From Methylorubrum extorquens (GTDB lineage: Bacteria; Pseudomonadota; Alphaproteobacteria; Rhizobiales; Beijerinckiaceae): DNA of 32,000 bases. The notes under the pieces were generated by a model that saw only the letters and a list, made by a program, of their open reading frames with translations, was not told where the DNA came from and searched no databases. Both the position numbers and the translations under genes were made by a program. The DNA lies in NCBI GenBank assembly GCA_900234795.1, contig LT962688.1, positions 5,520,001 through 5,552,000 on the forward strand, in the 5' to 3' direction. Positions 8,604 to 32,000 of this stretch are shown here, piece by piece. Numbering within the stretch: position 1 is the stretch's first letter; each line of letters opens with the position of its first letter.

Positions 8604-9174
8604 CACGTCTCCTCACTTGAAAACGAGAAAACGCGAGCACCGACAATCCGTTCAGGCGACGACAGGCCCTAAGGCCAAGCAGGACGGACGTGATGCGTTT
8701 AGCCGCTGGTTAGCGGTTATGGAACCAAGGCCAACTCAAACGCTCACGTGCGCGTCCGCGCCGTCGCCTTCCTCGTCGCGCGAAGAGAGACCTGAACCGC
8801 CGCGTGGAAGGCGATCGGCAAGGCAGAAAGATTCAATAGTTGTGGTACATTGTTTTGTAGATATTGTAGCAATTTAGACGTGTACTTGACTAAGAGTGGA
8901 AACTAACCAATCATAGGGCAATCAAATGTGGTTTGAATTCGGGCTGCACGTCTGAGTTTAAGCTACTGCTGTTTTAGGAGCATGTGGCTCCATTCAGTTG
9001 TGGCAAGTTTCGCCTGGCTGATCGTTCAGCCGCTAGGATCGCGGTTTGCTATCTTTCGTTCTGAATCAACAGCGTTAGTGGGAGCGTGAATGGCACACAA
9101 TTGCTGTTCGTTGCGCTTTTGACTCCGAGATCAATCAATCATGCGTGGATTAGACTCAACGATGGTGGCATAAA

Positions 9175-11487
9175 ATGCGAAGTAAACCGAAAGACTCATT
9201 CGCAGTGGTCCAACACGGCGAGGCATCATTATCATCGGACAGCATCGAACAAGATGGAGTCGAAATCAGTACGGCTGTGGCCGATGCAACCGAAGCTGTA
9301 GCGTTTATCGCAGAAGCAGCATTCTCAGAGAATGACACAAGGATACGCGGCAGCTCCGTATCGACTGACGTGCACACCTACGAATTCTCAAATATTGCAA
9401 GCGTAGAAGCCTATTTTCGTGCGGCGCTATCTTCATCACAGGCAGAAGTCGTGGCCGAAAAATCGATCACGGCAGAAACTCTGCCTATCAGAGTAACTAG
9501 TGGGTTTGCTTCGAAGGGCAGATCCTCCTTCAAGGAATTACGAGCTCAAGCCGCCGAACGCGAGCAAGCGGCTGAAGCGGGGTGTAATGAACGCCGGCAA
9601 CGCAAGCCAGCGAAGCAGAAGCGCGTCATTGCCGCCTTGCGAGCCCAAGTGGAAAATGATCCGCAATACAAATCAGCATGTGAGGAGGCGAAGCGGGTGC
9701 AGCAGCGCTACGCTGCCGCGCTTAAATCACAGTCTGACAGCTCGCCGGTAGCGCGTCGCTCCCTTACGGAAGTCGAGAATGCTGCAAATTTCGCCCAAGA
9801 TTTCTACCTTGTGAATCTCGCGGCGATAGCAACCCGGATAGAACGGTGTGGCTCTGAGGACGCCTTCGCTTGCGGCTCGGACTATTGCCCACACTGCAGA
9901 AAACGCTTCGGCGCCAGGCTCCTCGAAGATACGCAGGTGCAACTATCGCGTCGTTACGGTCAGGATTTGGAACAAGCTCGCAACGAGCTTGTTCATGTTA
10001 CCATCCTCAATGACATCGTGATCCCGGATCCGGACCTTGATAGAGATTACCTGGCGAATTTCTCCGCTTCTACAATCCGCCGTGACCATCGTGAGCTGCT
10101 AGCTTACTTGAAGAGGTGGCAGTCTGATCGCCGCAGCGCGATGTCTCACTTGCTTGCTAAGCGAAAGCTGAGCATGGAGCTTATCGAAGATTGGATGACG
10201 GCAGAAAATCGGGACAGACGGTTCTATAGTGCTGATAATCTGTACGCAGACGCTATTCAGCTCGTTAGATTCAACGAGTTAATCGAAAGCGCGCACCGTA
10301 AGTTCAAAAGAAAGCGGGACTGGCTTAAAAATCCGCCGAATGATTTTGTCTCTTGGCGCGCTGCTGAAGATGTGGATCCCTATATGTGGCAGCTAAGAAA
10401 GGCTCAGACTCTCAGCAGAGACGACATATTCAAGCTCGCGCACGGACTACAATGCCTCGACCGGCAATTCGAAGGTCTCACGAAAACTAATTTCCCCGAA
10501 AGGCTTAAGTTTAAGAGTTCGATTGAGAAGGTAATGAGGAGGGAGCGAAGTAAGCTATATCGACTCAATAAGGACTTGCCGGGAATTTCGCTCATCGGAC
10601 AGTTTGAGCTCGAGTTGGTTGATTTGCGTCATTCGATCGGGGGCACCCATCAGCATCGGACCAAATCGCAGACGTTGCGAGCGCTCGCATCGCAGCCCCG
10701 AAAGCCATTAAAGCCGCGAAAATCAGACGAGCCACCTTCAGCTGAGGCAGAGCGCCGTCGGATAAAGCAGACCGCAAAAGCTCGGCTACTCGACGAAGCA
10801 CGCGAACGGATTACAGGAAATCGCGAACTGCCTGAAAGCGACTTTCCCGGCCTGCAGTTTGCTGTCCTTCTGCATATCCACGCGTTCGTAGACCTAAACG
10901 GTCACTCTCGAGATGACCTCGAACGATGGTTGTCTGGCAAGCAGGTCGGAACACGGAAGTTCAAAGGTTTCTGGAGGCTCCCATATCAGGTGATGGTGAA
11001 GAAGTTATTCGAAGCTAAGCCTATCAACGATAGCCTTCGGGATATCAGCTTCTACCCCTTTAAGGGTCCAACGACTTTCAATTACGAAAACACGGCTCCA
11101 AAGCACGATGAGGATCTGCCAGATGAGGATCCTGCCAACTTTTCCGATGAAGCGCTCGCGCTGCTCGCATGGCTGCAGGTCGGGATCGGGCACGAGAGTC
11201 TAAGGCTTTCGATCAACTGGCCGAGCGTGGACCGAGAGCGTCGTGGCCGGAAGCCGAACAAGACCGTCATCCCAAAAGTGACTGAGGAAGAGTTCTACGA
11301 GGAGATCGAGCCGATGCTGGCTGAGCGGGGGCTGAGCCTTCCCACAGAACCTTCAGGTCAGACAGATCTGAGCGAGCTGTTCGAGGCTGAAGACATTCGA
11401 GAGGGTATGAGTAGAGGCTCGCGCAATGACGAATGTGAGGAAGAGGGCGATATTAACGACACTGCTGCATCTCCCTCCCAGGATTAG
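9175..11487 (+). CDS. large HUH-superfamily protein, Rep_1-like rolling-circle initiator/relaxase candidate
   Basis: 770-aa ORF in a ~50% GC patch. Ordered motifs: Cys cluster RIERCGSEDAFACGSDYCPHCRKR (9847-9906); motif I-like LVHVTILND (HVTIL at 9994-10008); QFELELVD; HUH motif LLHIHAFVDL (HIH at 10873-10881); Tyr motif ISFYPFKG (Tyr at 11053-11055, Y-x-x-K). Long acidic or low-complexity N- and C-terminal extensions. Confidence 0.6.
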   Translation: MRSKPKDSFAVVQHGEASLSSDSIEQDGVEISTAVADATEAVAFIAEAAFSENDTRIRGSSVSTDVHTYEFSNIASVEAYFRAALSSSQAEVVAEKSITAETLPIRVTSGFASKGRSSFKELRAQAAEREQAAEAGCNERRQRKPAKQKRVIAALRAQVENDPQYKSACEEAKRVQQRYAAALKSQSDSSPVARRSLTEVENAANFAQDFYLVNLAAIATRIERCGSEDAFACGSDYCPHCRKRFGARLLEDTQVQLSRRYGQDLEQARNELVHVTILNDIVIPDPDLDRDYLANFSASTIRRDHRELLAYLKRWQSDRRSAMSHLLAKRKLSMELIEDWMTAENRDRRFYSADNLYADAIQLVRFNELIESAHRKFKRKRDWLKNPPNDFVSWRAAEDVDPYMWQLRKAQTLSRDDIFKLAHGLQCLDRQFEGLTKTNFPERLKFKSSIEKVMRRERSKLYRLNKDLPGISLIGQFELELVDLRHSIGGTHQHRTKSQTLRALASQPRKPLKPRKSDEPPSAEAERRRIKQTAKARLLDEARERITGNRELPESDFPGLQFAVLLHIHAFVDLNGHSRDDLERWLSGKQVGTRKFKGFWRLPYQVMVKKLFEAKPINDSLRDISFYPFKGPTTFNYENTAPKHDEDLPDEDPANFSDEALALLAWLQVGIGHESLRLSINWPSVDRERRGRKPNKTVIPKVTEEEFYEEIEPMLAERGLSLPTEPSGQTDLSELFEAEDIREGMSRGSRNDECEEEGDINDTAASPSQD

Positions 11488-11731
11488 ATCCACCGGTTCT
11501 GAGAAAATATCTCGCTAACCCAACAACTTAATCTATGCCGCGGTTTGCTCTGAAGCCAAACCGATAAGGCGTGCTGTCGAATTCGCATAAAATTATGCAT
11601 CCCAGTCAAATGGGCGTGCACGCAGACCTTGCAACCAAAAAATCCGCGATGAACTCGATGCCTCGCTTTCCGCAAGCGAGAACGGCCGAGCCTTGCCTCG
11701 GGCGATCGGGTCGTCGTGCCCACCTACGAGG

Positions 11732-12058
11732 ATGACCATGACCATCGACCCTACCCGCATCGACAGAGACAGGCTGGATCAACTCCGACGCGACGTTGCC
11801 GAGAAGCACGGCATCGACCTGTACCTTCAGTATACGGAACAGCAGGCTGCCTTCCTGCTGATCCGCCCCGACGAACGGTCCGCAAGGCGTGCTGACTGCT
11901 CGACGCTGAAGCGCAAGCGCCGCGCAGGCAAGATCCCTCACGTGCCCCTAGGGAACAACTCAGTCGCCTACTTCGGGATGATGCTGTGCGATTTCCTAAT
12001 GTTCGGCGAACAGTCCGTCACGCTTTGGGGTGCAAGCGACGAGCGATCCCAACAGTAA
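11732..12058 (+). CDS. AlpA/excisionase-like HTH protein (putative Xis/regulator)
   Basis: YTEQQAAFLL....STLKRKRRAGKIPHVPLGNNSVAYFGMMLCDFL resembles the MerR-superfamily excisionase/AlpA (HTH_17) core, with an insertion. It sits directly upstream of the integrase. GAGG precedes tandem ATGs at 11732 and 11738, and the second is better spaced. Confidence 0.55.
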   Translation: MTMTIDPTRIDRDRLDQLRRDVAEKHGIDLYLQYTEQQAAFLLIRPDERSARRADCSTLKRKRRAGKIPHVPLGNNSVAYFGMMLCDFLMFGEQSVTLWGASDERSQQ

Positions 12059-12134
12059 GTCTCAGCAGACGGAGCTGCTCTTCCATTGTGAGATAGGGGA
12101 GGGCGGTGTGTGAGATTGGAGGCAGGAGGGTGAG

Positions 12135-13268
12135 GTGGGCCGATACACGAAGCGTGAGCACGTGGCGGGCAGGTTCTGGCTCGACAAACGATCAAACAGC
12201 CCTGCCTACTGTATCTGCTGGCTAGAAGGTCGCCAGGTCAGGCGCAAATCGACCGGGACCGACGACCTCGATGCGGCAATCCGGGTGCTGAAGGCGCACT
12301 ACCTGTCGGAAGATTCGCCCGAAGTCCAAGACGTCTCTCGCGTTCCGCTCGCGGATGTCGTGCAAGCGTACTACCTGCAACACGGTCAGCATCTCCCCGC
12401 GGCCAAGTGGCTGAGATACGCTGTTGCCCACTGGGTTCGCTTCTTTGGCGAGACGATTAGCGTTTGGAATGCGACCCGTCCGCCTCGGATTGAGCGGTTC
12501 ATCGATGACTTGCGGGAGCGGGGGCTAAAGCCTTCGTCGATCAATGCGGTCCTTACGGCGGGCAAGGCTGCGCTGAATCGATCGTGGAGGCGAGGCGAGC
12601 TAACCCGGCAGATCCATGTGCCTAGTATCAAGGTAACGAGAATGCAGCCAAAGGGGCGGCCGCTGTCGGTTGAAGAATGTGCAGCCTGGCTCGATGCCTC
12701 GGCCCCGCACTTCCACACCTTGTTATTCGTTTGCCTTGCTACCGGCAGCCGACCTGAGGCCGTGAAAGAACTCCGATGGGAGCAGGTCGACTTCGAGGAC
12801 GGGCTCCTCCATCTCAACCCTGAAGAGCGTGAGCAAACGAGCAAGCATAGGCCCGTCGTGAAGATGCCGCCGATTCTCATCGCGTATATGCGTCAGCTTC
12901 CACGAGAATCGGATTTCGTGGTCAGCTATCGAGGCAGGCCGGTCGACCGGTACTACACCGCGCTAGGCGAGGGTCGTAAGCGGGCCGGACTCGATGAGCG
13001 GGTCAACCTTTACAGTGCACGTCATACGGTGGCGCGCTGGATGCGTAAGGAACGTGTACCAATCGAGGAGATTTCCGGCCAGCTTGGCCACCGCGTCAGG
13101 GGATTTGCAATTACAGAGATCTACGCTGCGTACTCGCCGGACTACCAACAAAATGCGACCTCGGCGCTGGAGCGGCTGTTGCACGCGATCGCGACACGGG
13201 CACAGTCATGCCACACCCTCATTGGATCTAGTACAACCAATGTTGGGGATCGAATTCTGGCCGACTGA
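12135..13268 (+). CDS. tyrosine site-specific recombinase (phage-type integrase)
   Basis: 377-aa ORF. SAM-like N-domain (...AKWLRYAVAHWVRFFGE...FIDDLRERGLKPSSINAVLTAGKAAL). Catalytic-domain signatures LLFVCLATGSRPEAVKELRWEQVDF, YSARHTVARWM, GHRVRGFAITEIYAAY (R..H-x-x-R..Y). GTG start preceded by GGAGGCAGGAGG. Confidence 0.9.
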   Translation: MGRYTKREHVAGRFWLDKRSNSPAYCICWLEGRQVRRKSTGTDDLDAAIRVLKAHYLSEDSPEVQDVSRVPLADVVQAYYLQHGQHLPAAKWLRYAVAHWVRFFGETISVWNATRPPRIERFIDDLRERGLKPSSINAVLTAGKAALNRSWRRGELTRQIHVPSIKVTRMQPKGRPLSVEECAAWLDASAPHFHTLLFVCLATGSRPEAVKELRWEQVDFEDGLLHLNPEEREQTSKHRPVVKMPPILIAYMRQLPRESDFVVSYRGRPVDRYYTALGEGRKRAGLDERVNLYSARHTVARWMRKERVPIEEISGQLGHRVRGFAITEIYAAYSPDYQQNATSALERLLHAIATRAQSCHTLIGSSTTNVGDRILAD

Positions 13269-13353
13269 CTTGATTCTTTGGAAATTCGCTCACAACATCC
13301 ATCTTATCTGCCTCATGTGATCAGCAAATAGTGGCACGCAGTCAGAGGGTTGA

Positions 13354-13378
13354 CCGGCGGCTCCGCCGGATCGCTTTT
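13354..13378 (+). terminator. hairpin plus T-tract downstream of the integrase
   Basis: CCGGCGG-CT-CCGCCGG perfect 7-bp stem (13354-13369), followed by ATCGCTTTT. About 85 nt after the integrase stop. Confidence 0.4.
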
Positions 13379-13673
13379 ACTTGGGCAAATTCCACAGCAT
13401 CTCGTAAGCGGACGCTGTGGCGGCCGGCATCTCGGGTGTCATTCGCCAGCCCTAAGCTGACGCCGCTCGGGCGCACCCATTGCGTGATGTGCCAGGACGT
13501 CGGCCCCGGCGTGGTCGCCGATCCCGACCGGCGGGGCGGCCTGAGGATGGTCTTCACGTTGGACCCAGCGAGCCTATGTCGGCGAGCTCGGACCGGCGGC
13601 CGAGGGGGCTGCGTGGGACACTGTTGGGTACACGCGTTTCCTGCGTTTCGGTGCCTACCCGATCCCGGGCGAC

Positions 13674-14447: not shown

Positions 14448-15668
14448 TCAGTGGTGACGTCTCCGCTTCACCGCACCTCGAAGAATGCGGGCGAGCTCAT
14501 CAGCCGAGTAGGGCTTGCGCAGAACCTCGAACCCATGCGCGTCATCCTGCGCAAGCACGTGGCTGTAGCCGGACGTCAGAACCACTGGCAGGTCCGGATG
14601 GATGTCTCTGAGCCTTCTGGCGAGCTCGATCCCTCCTATGCCGGGCATCACCACGTCGGAGAACACCGCATCAAAGTTGGACGCCGACTCCTCAACAGCG
14701 TCGAGCGCTGCTTCCGCGTTCTGGGTCCAGACAGGGCTGTGACCGAGGTCCTCCAAGATCTGCGTGCAGAAGCGTCCAACCTCCAGATTGTCCTCCACTA
14801 CCAGGATGCACAGACCCAAATCACCCGCAGTCTCTTCCGGCTGATTCGCCGCGGGGGTACCCATGTTTTTTGGGAGGTCGACCTGCGGCAGGTAGAGGAT
14901 GAAGGTCGTGCCCTCGCCCAGGGTACTGCGCACGTCAACGTCACCGCCCGACTGCTTGGCAAAGCCGATGACTTGGCTCAGGCCGAGCCCTGTACCCTTG
15001 CCAATCTCCTTCGTCGTGAAGAACGGCTCAAAGATGCGCGTAAGGTCGGCCTGAGCGATGCCCCTGCCGGTGTCCGTGACCGACACGGCCACGAACCGGC
15101 CGGAGGAGGCACCGGCGTGCCCGCGGATCGGTGGCATCGGGGTCCCAGCATTGAGGTGCAGGGTGAGCCTGCCCTCGCCGTCCATCGCGTCCCGCGCGTT
15201 TACTGCGATGTTGACCAGCGCCGTCTCGAACTGGCTGGCGTCGGCCCGAACGTAGCAGTGCTCGCCGGGCAAGTCGGTGACGACCCGAATGCGAGCGCCA
15301 GTCACCGCGTCGAGCATGTCCGAGATGGCCCGAAGACGCTCCGAAACCTCGAACACCTCGGGCCTGAGGGGCTGCCGCCGCGCGAAGGCCAACAGCTGGC
15401 TGGTCAGCTTCGCCGCCCGGTCGACCGTATCCGATACCGCGTTCAGATAGCGACGCTTGCGCTCCTCCGCCAAGTCGGGCCGGCGCAGGAACTCGACGGA
15501 GGAGCGGATGATGGTCAGGAGGTTGTTGAAGTCGTGTGCCACGCCGCCTGTGAGCTGACCGATGGCCTCCAGCTTCTGCGATTGCCGCAGCGCTTCCTCT
15601 GCCAGGCGCTGCTCCGTGATGTCGCGGCCGAAGCCGTACAGCACCCCATCCTCGGGAACGTCGTGCAC
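14448..15668 (-). pseudogene. hybrid sensor histidine kinase/response regulator, 5'-truncated (sensor domains lost)
   Basis: The ORF opens in the last strand of a PAS domain (GVLYGFGRDITEQRLAEEALRQSQKLEAIGQLTGGVAHDFNNLL = H-box). It continues through HATPase_c (NARDAM, DTGRGI, GKGTGLGLS) and a REC domain (ILVVEDN...DVVMPG...KPY). A stop lies immediately upstream (D*IDSHGVHDV), and only an alternative GTG start is available. Confidence 0.75.
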
Positions 15669-22297: not shown

Positions 22298-22438
22298 ATG
22301 AAGTCGATGTCCGAGATGACACATGAGGTCACGGATGCGGTCAGGAAGGTGTTCGGCCGGCTGACAGGCCGTGTCGATCAGATGCCGCGCACCGGCAAGC
22401 CTTCCGGCAAGTCTGACAGGATGACCGGGAAGAAGTGA
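22298..22438 (+). CDS. small charged hypothetical protein (46 aa)
   Basis: GGAGGA lies 8 nt upstream of ATG 22298. MKSMSEMTHEVTDAVRKVFGRLTGRVDQMPRTGKPSGKSDRMTGKK has ordinary composition. It converges on and overlaps the non-homologous tail of the recombinase ORF. Confidence 0.35.
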   Translation: MKSMSEMTHEVTDAVRKVFGRLTGRVDQMPRTGKPSGKSDRMTGKK

Positions 22439-23012
22439 TTTGGACAGAGGGGGCGCCGATACCGTCCTTCGGCGCCTCTCCCGTCCCATTGGCCTCCGTC
22501 TCACGGGTGCTCGGCCTCTCATAGGGTGCTGCCCGCTCGGCGCCAACCTGCTGATTGCGCAGGTTCGCCGGATTGCCCAGGCGCACACCCCAGGCCTTTG
22601 CAGCGGCCAGCGCGGCCTTCGTCCGGGCTGAGATCATCTTGCGCTCGGCTTGCGCCACCACGGCCATGATCCCGACCACCAGCTCCACCAGCTCGTTGGC
22701 CTCCGGCATGTCGGCAGCGACGAACCGCACGCCGGCCTTCTGCAAGTTCAGCAGGAAGGCGGCGTCGCGCGACAGCCGATCCAGCTTGGCAATGACCAGG
22801 GTGGCCCCATGCAGCCTGCAAAGGGCCAGGGCTTCGGCGAGGCGGGGGCGCGCATCACGCGCCCCGCTCTCGACCTCCACTAGCTCGGCGACATGCCGCC
22901 AGGAGCCACCGGCGAGGAAGTCGGCCACGGCCTTGCGCTGCGCCTCCAGGCCAAGCCCGGACCGGCCCTGTCGCTGGGTCGAGACGCGCAGGTAGGCGAC
23001 AAAGCTGCTCAA
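22341..23012 (-). CDS. serine recombinase (resolvase-domain protein); C-terminal tail non-homologous, probably truncated or replaced
   Basis: [28 protein letters not shown]...[76 protein letters not shown] is a complete catalytic domain. The likely start is TTG at 23012. After about 22545 the sequence ([17 protein letters not shown]...[10 protein letters not shown]) shows no HTH in any frame. Confidence 0.75.
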   Translation of the reverse strand: [223 protein letters not shown]

Positions 23013-23172
23013 GCGGTCCCCGTGACGTGAAGCTGCACCGACGATCAAGGTGCTGTCACAGCGCACGGAGCGGTACGGATAGCTAACTGTCCGCCGTCAG
23101 CACTCCTGAGACATACTGAGGGTCTTCACGAACGGAGGATGGCTGGTTCATCGTAGCCTTCCAGGAGCGAAG

Positions 23173-24531
23173 ATGAAGCAGACGTCCGGGCCGGCACGGA
23201 AGCCGGCAGAAGCCGTGATCAAGGACATCCGTCGCGCGACACGCCGACAGTTCTCGGCCGAGGAGAAGATCCGCATCGTGCTGGAAGGCCTGCGCGGTGA
23301 AGACAGCATCGCCGAGCTGTGCCGGCGTGAGGGCATCGCCAGTTCGATGTACTACGGCTGGTCCAAGGAGTTTCTGGAGGCCGGCAAGAAGCGGCTGGCC
23401 GGCGACACGGCCCGTGCCGCGACCGCTGATGAGGTCCAAGATCTGCGCCGCGAGACGGGTGCGCTGAAGGAACTCGTGGCCGACCTCGTCCTGGAGAACC
23501 GCCTGCTGAAAAAGAGAAAGCATGACCGCGGCTGGGGGCGACGAGGCATGAGGTACCCGGCCTCTGAGAAGCTGGAGATCATCCAGCTGGTCGAGCAGTC
23601 CCACCTGCCGGTGCGCGCTACCCTGGAGAAGCTCGCCATCCCGCGCGCCACTTTCTACCGCTGGTATGACGCTTTCCAGTGCGGCGGCCCCGAGGCATTG
23701 GCGGATCGTCCCTCGCGGCCCAGCCGGGTCTGGAATCGTCTGCCCGCAGAGATCCGCGAGCAAATCGTCGCCCTCGCGCTGGAGCAGCCGGAGCTCAGCC
23801 CGCGCGAGTTGGCGGTGCGCTTCACCGACGAGCGGCGCTACTTCGTCTCGGAGGCAACCGTCTACCGCTTGCTCAAAGCCCAGGACCTGATCACCAGCCC
23901 GGCTTACATCGTCGTCAAAGCCGCCGATGAGTTCCACGACAAGACGACCGCGCCCAACCAGCTCTGGCAGACGGACTTCACCTACCTGAAGGTCGTGGGA
24001 TGGGGTTGGTACTACCTCTCGACCGTGCTCGACGACTTCTCGCGCTACATCGTGGCGTGGAAGCTGTGCACGACGATGCAGGTCGGCGACGTCACCGCCA
24101 CGCTCGACCTTGCGCTGGCGGCGGCCGGGCTCGACCACGTGCAGGTGGCGCATCGGCCACGGCTACTCACCGACAACGGATCGAGCTACGTCGCGGGTGA
24201 TCTGGCCGACTGGCTCGGCAGTCGGGGTATGACCCATATCCGCGCGGTGCGCCGCGCCATCCGCAGACGCAGGGCAAGATCGAGCGCTGGCACCAGACGC
24301 TCAAGAACCGCATCCTGCTCGAACACGCCTACCTGCCCGGCGAATTGGAGGCGCGGGTTGCCGCCTTTGTCGAGCACTACAACCACGCTCGGGCTCACGA
24401 GAGCCTGGGCAATCTCACCCCTGCCGACGTCTACTTCGGCCGCGGCGAGACGATCTTACGTGAACGGGCGCGGATCAAGCGCCAGACCCCTCATGGATCG
24501 CCGCTTGCGCCATCACGCGCAGGCTGCCTAA
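23173..24531 (+). pseudogene. IS3-family transposase (OrfA-like HTH plus OrfB rve core in one frame) with two frameshifts near the 3' end
   Basis: OrfA-like region: FSAEEKIRIVLEGLRGEDSIAELCRREGIASSMYYGWSKEFLEAGKKRL...LENRLLKK. OrfB-like region: YPASEKLEIIQLVEQSHLPVRATLEKLAIPRATFYRWYD...NQLWQTDFTYLKVVGWGWYYLSTVLDDFSRYIVAWKL...LLTDNGSSYVAGDL. Conserved GAPRHPQTQGKIERWHQTLKNRILLEHAYLPGELEARVAAFVEHYNHARAHESLGNLTPADVYFGRGETILRERARIKRQT is in another frame (about 24250-24487). The first frame resumes for LMDRRLRHHAQAA*. Confidence 0.8.
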
Positions 24532-24645
24532 CCTCTTGTAACTTGATCCCACCTTCGCCGGGTATGCTCTTCGGCGCGGTGGCGGGTGAGAGACCGTTAG
24601 CCTCTGGGGCCACCAAGCCCGCAAGTGAGCCAGGGTCCTCGCCCG

Positions 24646-25665
24646 CCGTTCCATCGAACCCGAACAGTCGCTTGGGCCGCTCAACGCGAAGCCCGCTTGC
24701 GCAAGGATGGGATCAGATGGACGCTCCTGTTGTTGGGATCGATGTGGCCCGTGACCGCCTCGATATTCATGTTCATCCCTCTGGAGCGAACTTCGCCGTT
24801 GATCGTACGACCGAGGGTGTGGAGCAGCTGTGCGAACGCCTCCGGCCCCTGAAGCCGAAGCTCGTCGTCCTGGAGGCAACCGGCGGTTTGGAAGCCATGG
24901 TGGCACGTGCTCTCACCACCTGGAGGCTACCAGCCGTGATCGTGAACCCAGCACAGGTCCGTGCTTTCGCTCACGCCTTGGGCCAACGCGCCAAGACCGA
25001 CCGCATCGACGCCACCGTGATCGCCCGGTTCGCGGCGGCCACCAACCCACCCGTTCGCGCTCGGGCCGATGCCGAGACTCAGGCCTTGGCTGATCTCGTC
25101 ACAAGACGCCGTCAGATCGTAGGACTGATCGCGTCCGAGCGGCAGCGAGCGAGCCAAGCTCCACCGTGCATTCGAGACAGCGTCCGGCGCGTCATAGAGG
25201 CGTTGGAGCAGGAGCAGAGTGTGATCGACCGCTCGATCGATGCAGAGGTAGACCGGTCGCTTGAATGGCGCAGGAAGGAGACCCTCCTGACCTCCGTTCC
25301 TGGTGTTGGACCGACGATCGCACGAACCCTGATCGCGGAGCTGCCTGAGCTTGGAAGCCTCAACCGGAAGCAAGTCGCCGCGCTGGTCGGCTTGGCCCCT
25401 TGGACGCGGCAATCCGGTCAGTGGCGAGGGAGGAGCTTCATTGCAGGCGGCCGCGCACCTGTTCGCACGGCGCTGTTCATGGGGGCCATGGTGGCCAGCC
25501 GTCACAATGCCGCGCTGAAAACCTTCCGCGACCGGCTCATCGCAGCCGGTAAGCCCAAGCTCGTTGCCCTGATTGCCACCGCTCGGAAGCTGATCACCAT
25601 CCTCAACGCCATCCTGAGAGACGGAACGCCATGGCAACCCGCTTGACCAGCAAGACAGTCGCTCA
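24646..25665 (+). mobile_element. IS110-family element, copy A (IS110-type layout: long 5' end, about 19 bp after the stop); true left end lies somewhere in 24532-24646
   Basis: Near-identical inverted copy at 30981-32000. Identity ends at 25665 (...CAAGACAGTCGCTCA). The left limit cannot be set because copy B runs off the window. The element sits between the IS3 orfB stop (24531) and the IS3 IRR (25683). Confidence 0.8.
24717..25646 (+). CDS. IS110-family transposase/recombinase, intact (copy A)
   Basis: MDAPVVGIDVARDRLDIHV...LVVLEATGGLE...AKTDRIDATVIARFA (DEDD N-domain) and VPGVGPTIARTLIAELPELGSLNRKQVAALVGLAPWTRQSGQWRGRSFIAGGRAPVRTALFMGAMVA (C-domain). 309 aa. AAGGATGGG SD. Confidence 0.9.
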   Translation: MDAPVVGIDVARDRLDIHVHPSGANFAVDRTTEGVEQLCERLRPLKPKLVVLEATGGLEAMVARALTTWRLPAVIVNPAQVRAFAHALGQRAKTDRIDATVIARFAAATNPPVRARADAETQALADLVTRRRQIVGLIASERQRASQAPPCIRDSVRRVIEALEQEQSVIDRSIDAEVDRSLEWRRKETLLTSVPGVGPTIARTLIAELPELGSLNRKQVAALVGLAPWTRQSGQWRGRSFIAGGRAPVRTALFMGAMVASRHNAALKTFRDRLIAAGKPKLVALIATARKLITILNAILRDGTPWQPA

Positions 25666-30420: not shown

Positions 30421-30980
30421 ACTCGCCGACTCGCCTGGGCGCGACGCGGCTGCCCAGCCAGACCTTAGGAGGCTTTATAGCTGCCTCCAAGTGACTGAGC
30501 TTGTCAGGCAGGATCGTGTTCAGCGAGGCTCGCGAGAACATGGTCCGAGAAGGGTCATGTCCGGCCGCTCACCGCGTCAGGCGAATGACTGCTTCCCACC
30601 CCATCCGGACCTTCGACATCAGCGCCTCGAATGTCCGCAAGGGTCTTTTCATGCCTTCACACAAGCCGCACCCAGGTCCGCTCGTTCGGATTCGGCAGCG
30701 CAGAGCCCAAAGTCCCCAGTCGAATGAGCTCAGCCGTTCTGCTCAGGGTCATTGTGGTTGAGAGACGCTCTGATAACGACACTGCTCATTCTGCCCAAAA
30801 ACGACGGTCGCTCATTTACGCTGAGAAAAATGTTGTAGAGCCAGATGCTTAGCTGATCACAAAGTTGTGCCACACCAGCGCGCACTGGCCCGAGTGGCGA
30901 TTTCGATGCGTCTGCCGGTGGTGATCGGTGCGTGTTGCGTGAGTTGACGGCACCTACCCCCCGAATCACCGGACGCTACG

Positions 30981-32000
30981 TGAGCGACTGTCTTGCTGGT
31001 CAAGCGGGTTGCCATGGCGTTCCGTCTCTCAGGATGGCGTTGAGGATGGTGATCAGCTTCCGAGCGGTGGCAATCAGGGCAACGAGCTTGGGCTTACCGG
31101 CTGCGATGAGCCGGTCCCGGAAGGTTTTCAGCGCGGCATTGTGACGGCTGGCCACCATGGCCCCCATGAACAGCGCCGTGCGAACAGGTGCGCGGCCGCC
31201 TGCAATGAAGCTCCTCCCTCGCCACTGACCGGATTGCCGCGTCCAAGGGGCCAAGCCGACCAGCGCGGCGACTTGCTTCCGGTTGAGGCTTCCAAGCTCA
31301 GGCAGCTCCGCGATCAGGGTTCGTGCGATCGTCGGTCCAACACCAGGAACGGAGGTCAGGAGGGTCTCCTTCCTGCGCCATTCAAGCGACCGGTCTACCT
31401 CTGCATCGATCGAGCGGTCGATCACACTCTGCTCCTGCTCCAACGCCTCTATGACGCGCCGGACGCTGTCTCGAATGCACGGTGGAGCTTGGCTCGCTCG
31501 CTGCCGCTCGGACGCGATCAGTCCTACGATCTGACGGCGTCTTGTGACGAGATCAGCCAAGGCCTGAGTCTCGGCATCGGCCCGAGCGCGAACGGGTGGG
31601 TTGGTGGCCGCCGCGAACCGGGCGATCACGGTGGCGTCGATGCGGTCGGTCTTGGCGCGTTGGCCCAAGGCGTGAGCGAAAGCACGGACCTGTGCTGGGT
31701 TCACGATCACGGCTGGTAGCCTCCAGGTGGTGAGAGCACGTGCCACCATGGCTTCCAAACCGCCGGTTGCCTCCAGGACGACGAGCTTCGGCTTCAGGGG
31801 CCGGAGGCGTTCGCACAGCTGCTCCACACCCTCTGTCGTACGGTCAACGGCGAAGTTCGCTCCAGAGGGATGAACGTGAATATCGAGGCGGTCTCGGGCG
31901 ACATCGATCCCGACAACAGGAGCGTCCATCTGATCCCATCCTTGCGCAAGCGGGCTTCGCGTTGAGCGGCCCAAGCGACTGTTCGGGTTCGATGGAACGG
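30981..32000 (-). mobile_element. IS110-family element, copy B (inverted relative to copy A; truncated by the window edge)
   Basis: The reverse complement of 30981-32000 matches 24646-25665 except for 7 single-base differences. The flank beyond the right end (CGTAGCGTCC in element orientation) differs from that of copy A (ACCCAGGTGG). Confidence 0.85.
31000..31929 (-). CDS. IS110-family transposase/recombinase, intact (copy B)
   Basis: The 309-aa product is identical to copy A in the supplied translations. Confidence 0.9.
   Translation of the reverse strand: MDAPVVGIDVARDRLDIHVHPSGANFAVDRTTEGVEQLCERLRPLKPKLVVLEATGGLEAMVARALTTWRLPAVIVNPAQVRAFAHALGQRAKTDRIDATVIARFAAATNPPVRARADAETQALADLVTRRRQIVGLIASERQRASQAPPCIRDSVRRVIEALEQEQSVIDRSIDAEVDRSLEWRRKETLLTSVPGVGPTIARTLIAELPELGSLNRKQVAALVGLAPWTRQSGQWRGRSFIAGGRAPVRTALFMGAMVASRHNAALKTFRDRLIAAGKPKLVALIATARKLITILNAILRDGTPWQPA

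Follow-up and report, generated by a model that had tools for sequence, protein, structure and literature searches.

The locus described here raised the question of whether three neighbouring genes of Methylorubrum extorquens constitute a mobile element of their own or form part of a larger one. The genes lie in a window of 32,000 nucleotides (nt), namely, positions 5,520,001 to 5,552,000 of the forward strand of contig LT962688.1 (assembly GCA_900234795.1), and the coordinates below refer to this window unless another locus is named. They encode a 770-amino-acid (aa) protein resembling rolling-circle replication (RCR) initiators, hereafter the Rep-like protein, the 106-aa product of an orphan open reading frame (ORF), ORF106, and a tyrosine integrase. 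An earlier examination of the letters alone, referred to as the sequence-only reading, proposed a compact Rep-Xis-Int element of approximately 4.5 kb at 8840–13380, which would excise, replicate as a circle, and reintegrate. On the evidence given below, we lean towards a different answer, that the trio is the right-hand replication and integration end of an integrative island of approximately 11 kb. The island would belong to an undescribed family of 10–13 kb islands with an HUH-like Rep protein and a mechanism of excision and replication.

The three genes and the extent of the island

The three genes were co-directional on the + strand, as the sequence-only reading had stated. The Rep-like gene was placed at 9175–11487, ORF106 was placed at 11738–12058, and the integrase gene, encoding an apparently intact protein of 377 aa, was placed at 12135–13268. 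At the ORF106 locus, the longest ORF spans 11693–12058 (121 aa); homologs instead begin at the ATG at 11738, by which the start was set. The terminator-like GC hairpin and T-tract reported 3' of the integrase gene (13354–13378, +) were confirmed. The GC content was 0.49–0.60 over 9001–13500 and 0.67–0.74 on either flank; the patch of about 50% GC described previously was thus real as a drop below the flanks and as a value for the large gene, whereas the integrase region reached approximately 0.60. In agreement with the sequence-only reading, capsid, coat, and conjugation genes were absent from the window, and no tRNA genes were found in it.

Among the three gene products, only the integrase had a match in the databases searched (Pfam, NCBIfam, PHROGs, PADLOC, and PDB sequences). 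It matched Pfam Phage_integrase (PF00589) at E 5e-11 with 43 bits (cut-off 27.1) and phrog_1 of PHROGs at E 4e-42, and the residues R, H-x-x-R, H, and Y were visible on direct reading, which upheld its initial assignment as a tyrosine integrase. Selection was evaluated from the ratio of nonsynonymous to synonymous substitution rates (dN/dS), which was computed against L001 and L002, the latter being a locus of a second M. extorquens genome (CP077638.1). The ratio for the Rep-like gene was 0.26–0.27 overall, 0.06–0.24 in the motif-bearing segments of its core, and approximately 0.5 in the N-terminal extension. The values for ORF106 and the integrase gene were 0.29 and 0.07, respectively, and the integrase was 97.6% identical to its L002 counterpart. 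All three genes are intact and under purifying selection. The window and a sister strain (L019) differed by 7 single-nucleotide polymorphisms in 11.4 kb, 3 of which were in the Rep-like gene (9175–11366); all three were non-synonymous (K385E, F440S, and A641G), and they were too few to interpret. A disruption of the Rep-like gene in this sister strain, suspected from its gene table, was rejected because the ORF was intact.

L002 was also used as the reference for delimiting the island. In blastn comparisons, 2453–4270, 4271–6468, and 8669–13437 matched L002 at 92–97%, and the flanks differed past both ends. By this homology, the whole island extends over 2453–13437. It measures 10,985 bp, of which 8,785 bp remain when an insertion sequence (IS) that interrupts it is subtracted. 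The AT-rich non-coding DNA at 8840–9174, previously taken as the left boundary, was found to be an internal spacer, and the conserved unit continues to 2453. The complete non-coding spacer 5' of the Rep-like gene (8669–9174, +) is conserved in L001 and L002 and is probably a promoter region; it showed no significant structure (DNA fold z = -1.4), and its promoter-like sites did not exceed those in shuffled sequences.

The interruption at 6469–8668 is an IS5-type element, which is absent from L002 at the same point. It has 20-nt terminal inverted repeats (6467–6486/8652–8671) and a TA(A) target duplication, and its transposase, with a DDE_Tnp_1 match, is split into 6479–6949 and 8226–8450 on the minus strand. 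An IS110-family IS is nested in it, with a transposase at 6984–8033 (+) that matched DEDD_Tnp_IS110. Because the IS at 6469–8668 is absent from L002 and has its own inverted repeats and target duplication, it was regarded as a secondary insertion inside the island and not as the edge of the island.

These results bear directly on the proposal that the trio is a self-contained element at 8840–13380 that excises, replicates, and reintegrates alone. The proposal draws on the tight linkage and common direction of the trio in six loci and on some compact metagenomic relatives of the Rep-like protein that are small int-rep units, such as L034, in which an integrase gene lies 20 bp upstream of rep. 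However, the conservation with L002 and with distant loci runs left through the genes of a MerR-family regulator, an SH3-like protein, and a resolvase, the IS is a clean secondary insertion, and the island ends that could be defined enclose 10–13 kb. Moreover, no repeats flank 8840–13380. The sequence-only reading had itself named an extension beyond the IS debris as a refutation of the compact unit, and such an extension was found, as the unit of approximately 11 kb continues beyond the IS DNA with a resolvase, MerR, and cargo. The 4.5-kb proposal is therefore already largely refuted, and we give it hardly any credence. For the window, this means that a partly decayed island is present and that there is no 4.5-kb "minimal element" in its own right.

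The Rep-like protein and its putative nuclease core

Three features define HUH nucleases: motif I, the metal-binding H-U-H, and the catalytic tyrosine (PMC5714925). Neither the databases listed above nor a Foldseek search with the full-length model gave a match for the 770-aa protein. Its full-length homologs (n = 23) are all from Methylobacterium/Methylorubrum, are annotated as "hypothetical", and have no Pfam domain, and no description of the family was found in the literature. As the full-length model was dominated by helical insertions, the analysis was moved to compact relatives. These were obtained by an exhaustive profile search, which added 5 large-form relatives of 550–760 aa, two fragments, and approximately 50 proteins of approximately 300 aa that matched separately over the Cys/motif I and HxH/Tyr regions. 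The compact proteins are unnamed and mostly metagenomic, and they contain the same motif series in a shorter form; 45 members were aligned, with a mean column identity of 17%. When the large and compact families were compared using hhalign, residues 217–681 of the large form corresponded to the entire compact protein (probability 100%, E 2.3e-43). This core is broken by insertions at approximately 297–447 and 505–555 and is preceded by an N-terminal extension (aa 1–215). Because the core equals the whole compact protein, the 770-aa protein was considered an expanded derivative of the compact family.

The residues that are conserved throughout both forms are those expected of a nuclease of this type. 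Invariant in the large-form alignment were four cysteines (C225, C233, C238, and C241), the "TIL" at 276–278, E478 and E480, "LLHxHxxxDxN" at 565–575, and "SxYxxK" at 625–630. In the 45 compact members, C57, C62, C65, H183, H185, and Y254 were invariant, and C51, T99, G137, E140, E142, and K257 were nearly so. H567-I-H569 was invariant in 22 large members, as was H183-x-H185 in the compact ones, and this H-x-H sits on a strand in both models (562–573 and 178–189, respectively). Little or no variation was seen in Y627-x-x-K630/Y254-x-x-K257, which sits where a helix ends (617–626/236–256). In the window, the putative catalytic set is encoded at 9847–9897 (Cys4), 10000–10008 (T276 of "TIL"), 10606–10614 (E478/E480), 10873–10881 (H567-x-H569), and 11053–11064 (Y627-x-x-K630). 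Judged from these alignments, the family appears to carry the hallmarks of single-tyrosine HUH enzymes, namely, a Zn-ribbon, motif I, E-x-E, H-x-H, and Y-x-x-K.

The predicted structures were in line with this assignment. In the AlphaFold2 (AF2) model of the compact form (predicted local distance difference test, pLDDT, 90; predicted template modelling score, pTM, 0.87), the motifs were on consecutive beta-strands, and the 770-aa model, with a core pLDDT of 75–90, reproduced these elements and their order. In the models, a helix that follows H-x-H in the chain has the tyrosine at its end, which is the arrangement of Rep-class HUH enzymes. Using the compact model, Foldseek searches of BFVD gave best E-values of 2.5e-4 and 5.3e-4 (probability 1.00, TM-score approximately 0.45) for unnamed viral proteins. 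The three named matches, Microvirus mar5, a Vibrio phage replication protein, and VP4, were all replication initiators (E 0.08–0.11). In PHROGs, phrog_3584, "replication initiation protein", was matched by 4 of the 45 compact members (best E 9e-4), and no other PHROG was matched by two or more of them. A Pfam scan of the 45 members gave scattered weak matches only, including REP_ORF2-G2P at E 0.05 in one member.

Several searches counted against the assignment. No significant HUH match was obtained in Pfam, NCBIfam, or PDB sequences for the large or the compact family, and the large-family profile did not match phrog_3584 in PHROGs. All PDB matches in Foldseek had E ≥ 0.16, with the papillomavirus E1 DNA-binding domain at E of approximately 1–2. 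Comparisons with Chp2 VP4, phiMH2K Vp4, and phiX174 gpA using hhalign gave probabilities <1%, and the best local matches to gpA and VP4 still fell on the corresponding motifs. In profile searches, the protein matched none of the named HUH families significantly (Rep_1, Rep_2, Phage_GPA, Viral_Rep, Y2_Tnp, and others). The HUH motifs reported by the sequence-only reading were thus real with respect to H567-I-H569, which is invariant in the family, and no Rep_1, Y2-transposase, or other HUH profile match stands behind them; matches to Rep_1 (PF01446), the IS91-type Y2 transposase, and HTH_17 (PF12728), which had been suggested for checking, were all absent.

Given these results, it was also considered that the Rep-like protein is not an HUH enzyme and that its H-x-H and Tyr are convergent, the protein acting instead, for example, as a DNA-binding Zn-ribbon regulator, as an accessory to the recombinase, or as an effector in defence. 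The lack of a significant profile or solved-structure match is consistent with this, as are the best BFVD matches, which are unnamed with a TM-score of only approximately 0.45, and the fact that searches of plasmids, phages, and viral contigs never placed the family on an autonomous replicon. However, the residues that remain invariant at 17% identity are exactly those expected for HUH catalysis, both the order of the motifs and the secondary-structure elements that carry them are as expected, and the weak matches all point to replication initiators. Convergence was therefore considered improbable. Judged from the alignments and models, the Rep-like protein is likely an HUH-type nuclease, and its membership is described as probable and not as proven since the links to known HUH families are weak.

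Integrase modules, island ends, and other parts of the islands

Related islands are 10–13 kb long and centred on Methylobacterium/Methylorubrum. They share a backbone in the order of a small serine resolvase (- strand), a TM2 protein, an SH3-like protein of approximately 226 aa, a MerR regulator, one or two small ORFs, the Rep-like gene, and an integrase module, with variable and often defence-like cargo at the left. The integrase module is at the extreme end of the island and consists of either a tyrosine integrase with ORF106 (6 loci) or a large serine recombinase (4 loci, which represent three distinct islands). M. goesingense loci L010 and L011 share one island with a serine recombinase, and L014 and L015 are two more distant relatives. 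The integrase modules are thus interchangeable on one backbone. The order of Rep-like gene, small ORF, and integrase gene recurred in 6 of 6 loci of the tyrosine type, so the synteny expected for the trio was observed. In terms of the integrative rolling-circle element proposed before, the pairing of an HUH-like protein with an integrase held, whereas the Xis-Int part is not obligatory, being replaced by a serine recombinase in related islands.

ORF106 was co-inherited with the tyrosine integrase, directly 5' of which it lies. In tblastn synteny comparisons, it was present in 6 of 6 loci with a tyrosine integrase and absent from 4 of 4 loci with a serine recombinase. All of its 25 homologs are from Methylobacterium, and none has a Pfam domain. 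For ORF106 itself, a Pfam search to E ≤ 1 was empty, as were searches of NCBIfam, PHROGs, and PADLOC and a profile comparison with PDB. The earlier description as an AlpA/excisionase-like helix-turn-helix (HTH) protein could not be maintained, as neither ORF106 nor the longer ORF121 was supported as HTH_17 (PF12728) or an AlpA-type excisionase by any library or by the profile comparison with PDB. By its position and its co-occurrence with the tyrosine integrase, ORF106 is a candidate directionality factor. The last approximately 75 nt of the spacer between the Rep-like gene and ORF106 (11645–11718, +) contain nested inverted repeats conserved across six loci, with 90% of cells paired compared with 29–44% in slid controls. 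These repeats are a candidate cis-acting site, either an operator for orf106-int or an origin. In the archaeal Rep-Arvir family, an origin hairpin is found just downstream of rep (PMC13107129).

Island ends were defined precisely in M. goesingense DSM 21331. The L010 island of 13,078 bp is flanked by the 12-bp repeat GGCRCCCTGGAG at 1380–1391 and 14458–14469 of that locus, and the island of L010/L011 splits the major-tail gene of a gene transfer agent (GTA) or phage, with Phage_tail_2 fragments on both sides. Joining both GGCRCCCTGGAG copies in silico restored an uninterrupted ORF of 122 aa, and the L010 island is therefore a precise insertion of 13,078 bp. The host GTA of M. goesingense is presumably inactivated while the island is integrated.

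Islands with a tyrosine integrase had ends of another kind. Intact islands of this type occur in M. longum DSM 23933 and Methylobacterium sp. E-066, with an inverted repeat at either end. L008, L009, and the left end of L003 carry inverted repeats of 35–50 bp with scores of 37–38, compared with 19.5 ± 2.5 for shuffled sequences (L009 3156–3189/15206–15239; L008 4188–4239/14966–15017; L003 approximately 5323–5392). The repeats contain the repeated sub-motif GAAYGTCYGCT, and direct repeats at the island ends of L008 and L009 were at chance level. These inverted repeats may be either element-borne ends or the result of insertion into a palindromic target. The approximately 75-bp end repeat of L008/L009 was absent from the window. 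A 47-bp repeat at 30592–30638 of the window and 2497–2543 of L002 (87% identical, in opposite orientation, containing GAATGTCCGC) was considered as a look-alike of that end repeat and rejected as a different repeat; it has no relation to the island ends and may be a dispersed repeat of intergenic DNA.

An alternative is that the Rep-like protein is an HUH transposase of the IS91/ISCR type that moves the island by rolling-circle transposition, with the integrases as passengers or resolution functions. Besides the inverted terminal repeats of L008 and L009, this explanation has in its favor the Cys cluster before motif I, which resembles the zinc-binding domain of IS91 (weak Zn_Tnp_IS91 matches at E 0.08 in 2 of 45 compact members). 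However, no Y2_Tnp match was found, and the protein has a single invariant tyrosine, the second conserved one being 9–10 residues off, with no Y-x3-Y pair. The insertion in L010, with its 12-bp repeat and terminal serine recombinase gene, is a precise event of the recombinase type. In addition, a recombinase stands beside the Rep-like gene family-wide, and the gene is embedded in a 10–13 kb island. A transposase of this type was accordingly regarded as highly improbable.

The association with recombinases extended to the compact family, for which 8 of the 10 loci with usable flanks had a Pfam-confirmed recombinase adjoining or within a few kb. Tyrosine integrases upstream of the compact rep were found in L030 (429 aa) and L034 (578 aa, on an 85-kb contig beside aroA), and L032 has an integrase of 401 aa with an arm-binding domain and L038 one of 430 aa. 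L017 contains a resolvase, an 87-aa ORF, and a tyrosine integrase, and L037 contains a resolvase. Downstream of the compact rep, a 189-aa Phage_integrase was found in L016 (6185–6754, approximately 3 kb away), a 192-aa integrase with only the catalytic domain in L030 (3675–4253), and a 194-aa integrase in L033 (1958–2542). These integrases of approximately 190 aa, reduced to the catalytic domain, are approximately 400–500 bp from the compact rep in L030 and L033. L031, with ORFs of the same size and layout as L030, is a candidate ninth case by this resemblance, and L012 and L013 had no recombinase within their short contigs. Taking both forms together, the Rep-like family adjoins a site-specific recombinase in nearly every informative locus.

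From this pattern, a broader and more tentative proposal can be made, namely, that the compact proteins and their 700–900-aa Methylobacterium derivatives are an unrecognised HUH branch partnered with recombinases and represent a new class of integrative rolling-circle elements. The partners would be full-length tyrosine integrases, catalytic-domain-only forms of approximately 190 aa, small resolvases, and large serine recombinases, and the class would range from minimal metagenomic int-rep units to cargo islands of 10–13 kb. Nuclease and recombinase might even cooperate beyond mere co-residence, e.g., in single-strand excision and integration or in a replication-coupled switch.

The left part of the window's island contains cargo and remnants of the backbone. 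Its cargo is an RNase H gene (2751–3182, +; Pfam RNase_H, E 1.6e-39) and a 155-aa ORF (3377–3844, +), which was called as a gene in L002, L020, and L021 and had no Pfam or PADLOC match; RNase H was likewise without a PADLOC match. The pair lies in the stretch of lowest GC content (2500–4000, 0.48) and is common only to M. extorquens copies. Other islands carry Thy1, a methyltransferase, ORC-CDC6-like and PRTase-CE genes, CTD10/MC6/DUF2326, or an N6_N4 methyltransferase. The small serine resolvase remains as a C-terminal HTH remnant (3961–4209, -; HTH_7, E 6e-10), truncated by a 2.3-kb deletion relative to L002 (junction 4270/4271 = L002 4785/7104), and full resolvases are present in L008, L009, L010, L014, and L015. 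A C-terminal remnant of the approximately 226-aa backbone protein (4248–4610, +; weak SH3_3) was recognised by tblastx similarity of approximately 60% to L003, L004, and L005; the L009 homolog of this protein matched SH3_3 at E 5e-5. The MerR-family regulator (4748–5407, +; MerR_1, E 1e-16) is conserved in L002, L008, L009, L010, L014, and L015, and its gene is upstream of the Rep-like gene in all islands. It is followed by two ORF fragments of an IS256-family transposase (5537–6251, -), identified from translations and from Transposase_mut matches in the gene tables of L019 and L020. With its truncated resolvase, IS remnants, and nested IS insertion, the window's copy is partly decayed on the left.

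Outside the island, the window includes an IS-rich region. A serine recombinase/invertase-like ORF (22341–23066, -) lies beside an IS3-family transposase (23173–24531, +). An IS110-family transposase occurs in two more copies, identical in protein sequence, at 24345–25646 (+) and 31000–31974 (-), approximately 5.4 kb apart; as these inverted copies bracket sensor-kinase genes, the segment may be capable of inversion or act as a composite element.

Proposed mechanism and comparison with known systems

In the island reading that we prefer, the integrase, with ORF106 as its likely directionality factor, would excise the island as a circle. The Rep-like protein would then nick an origin on the excised circle and prime RCR, which may maintain the excised form, yield single-stranded DNA for transfer, or both. 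The MerR regulator would control the module, and the resolvase would resolve multimers.

Apart from the searches for HUH relatives, a number of results did not favor this mechanism. At 2453 and 13437, direct and inverted terminal repeats were at chance level and no att repeats were found, and a search via the flanking NMT1_3 gene for an empty site gave only sister strains carrying the same island, so the proposed empty-site comparison did not define attL and attR for the window's copy. The inverted, not direct, ends of L008 and L009 are atypical for a simple integrase island. An origin or nick site was not found, as no 11-mer was common to the island clades, no pC194-type CTTGATA site was conserved, and the upstream spacer had no structural excess. 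Covariation at 11645–11718 was weak, the observed values being reached by 42–91 of 500 shuffles. Moreover, no family member was detected by tblastn against plasmids and phages or in two scans of viral contigs, and no terminal overlaps indicating circular contigs were found in 20 small contigs. Since no member was on a plasmid, phage, viral, or circular contig, autonomous replication is unsupported by the occurrence data.

The same island could also be an integrative and mobilizable element (IME), in which the Rep-like protein would be mainly a relaxase that nicks an oriT for mobilisation by a helper conjugative element. The islands have no transfer genes of their own and no family member was found as a free plasmid, as would suit such an element, and most "relaxases" of streptococcal IMEs are relatives of RCR initiators; a review of these elements states that separating initiators from relaxases probably has little meaning (PMC5704250). 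However, the known RCR-type relaxases are those of Firmicutes, where they require coupling proteins of the TcpA type (PMC5704250), whereas no coupling protein or type IV secretion system gene was found in any island or in the window, and no oriT was identified. A mainly relaxase role was considered a minor possibility, less probable than the excision and replication of the preferred reading; the two roles are not mutually exclusive.

If activity is confirmed, the Rep-like proteins would provide a new initiator/relaxase family for tools that detect mobile elements, which are now blind to these islands. It would also explain the upkeep and spread of Methylobacterium islands with methyltransferase and conflict-system cargo, one of which disrupts a GTA tail gene, and it would offer a natural example of tyrosine and serine integrase modules swapped on one backbone.

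The order of motifs in the Rep-like protein, with the Cys cluster followed by motif I, H-x-H, and Tyr, is that of Rep_1 (pC194/pUB110) and Microviridae initiators, and, as in Rep_1, the Tyr is single and followed by a Lys three positions later. The only named structural neighbours of the compact model in BFVD are replication proteins of Microviridae and filamentous phages. Unlike these proteins, the family has no significant sequence relationship to Rep_1 or Microviridae, is chromosomal and integrase-linked here, and in the window has a 770-aa version with large insertions. Integrated filamentous prophages and their satellites also pair a rolling-circle initiator with integration, as in Pf-type phages (Int/Xis) and TLC-phi (Cri, Xer recombination). 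The islands resemble them in having an initiator with site-specific integration, no tailed-phage genes, and small membrane proteins. However, they have no Zot-like assembly ATPase or recognisable coat genes, and the known families to which the initiators of such phages belong, Phage_CRI and Rep_trans, were unmatched. Charybdis elements were rejected as relatives because they have no recognisable replication gene, and the Rep-Arvir family was rejected because of its archaeal Rep_trans-like fold.

To our knowledge, rolling-circle integrative elements are well documented in Actinobacteria, as actinomycete integrative and conjugative elements (AICEs), and in Firmicutes, as IMEs and integrative and conjugative elements with Rep-related relaxases, and not in Alphaproteobacteria. 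The likeness to AICEs and streptococcal IMEs pointed out by the sequence-only reading proved apt, as these have the closest logic (PMC3218068, PMC5704250). In the AICE pSAM2, repSA, xis, and int are in one operon and the initiator is needed for the excised form, and tyrosine and serine integrases have been exchanged between related AICEs (PMC3218068). The trio matches the AICE rep-xis-int module in gene order, int lies at the island end, and no att repeats were found for the window's copy; swaps of tyrosine and serine integrases occur in both groups. AICEs differ in having an FtsK/SpoIIIE Tra protein for double-stranded transfer and actinobacterial hosts, whereas the present islands are hosted by Methylobacterium/Methylorubrum (Alphaproteobacteria), have no Tra gene in the window or related loci, encode a Rep-like protein that matches no curated Rep profile, and have a different backbone (resolvase, TM2, SH3-like, and MerR).

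As in streptococcal IMEs, the islands are small and integrase-bearing, and their sole DNA-processing enzyme is, probably in the present case, a relative of RCR initiators that possibly serves maintenance as well as transfer (PMC5704250). The streptococcal enzymes belong to recognised families (Rep_2, PHA00330, Viral_Rep, and MobT) in Firmicutes, often with a TcpA coupling protein, whereas the present islands, hosted by Methylobacterium, lack a coupling protein and encode a member of an unclassified family with a putative relaxase role. The logic of AICE rep-xis-int modules and of IMEs with Rep-related relaxases is already known; the present islands differ in the alphaproteobacterial host, the absence of a Tra or coupling protein, the different backbone, and an initiator-like family outside every curated library.

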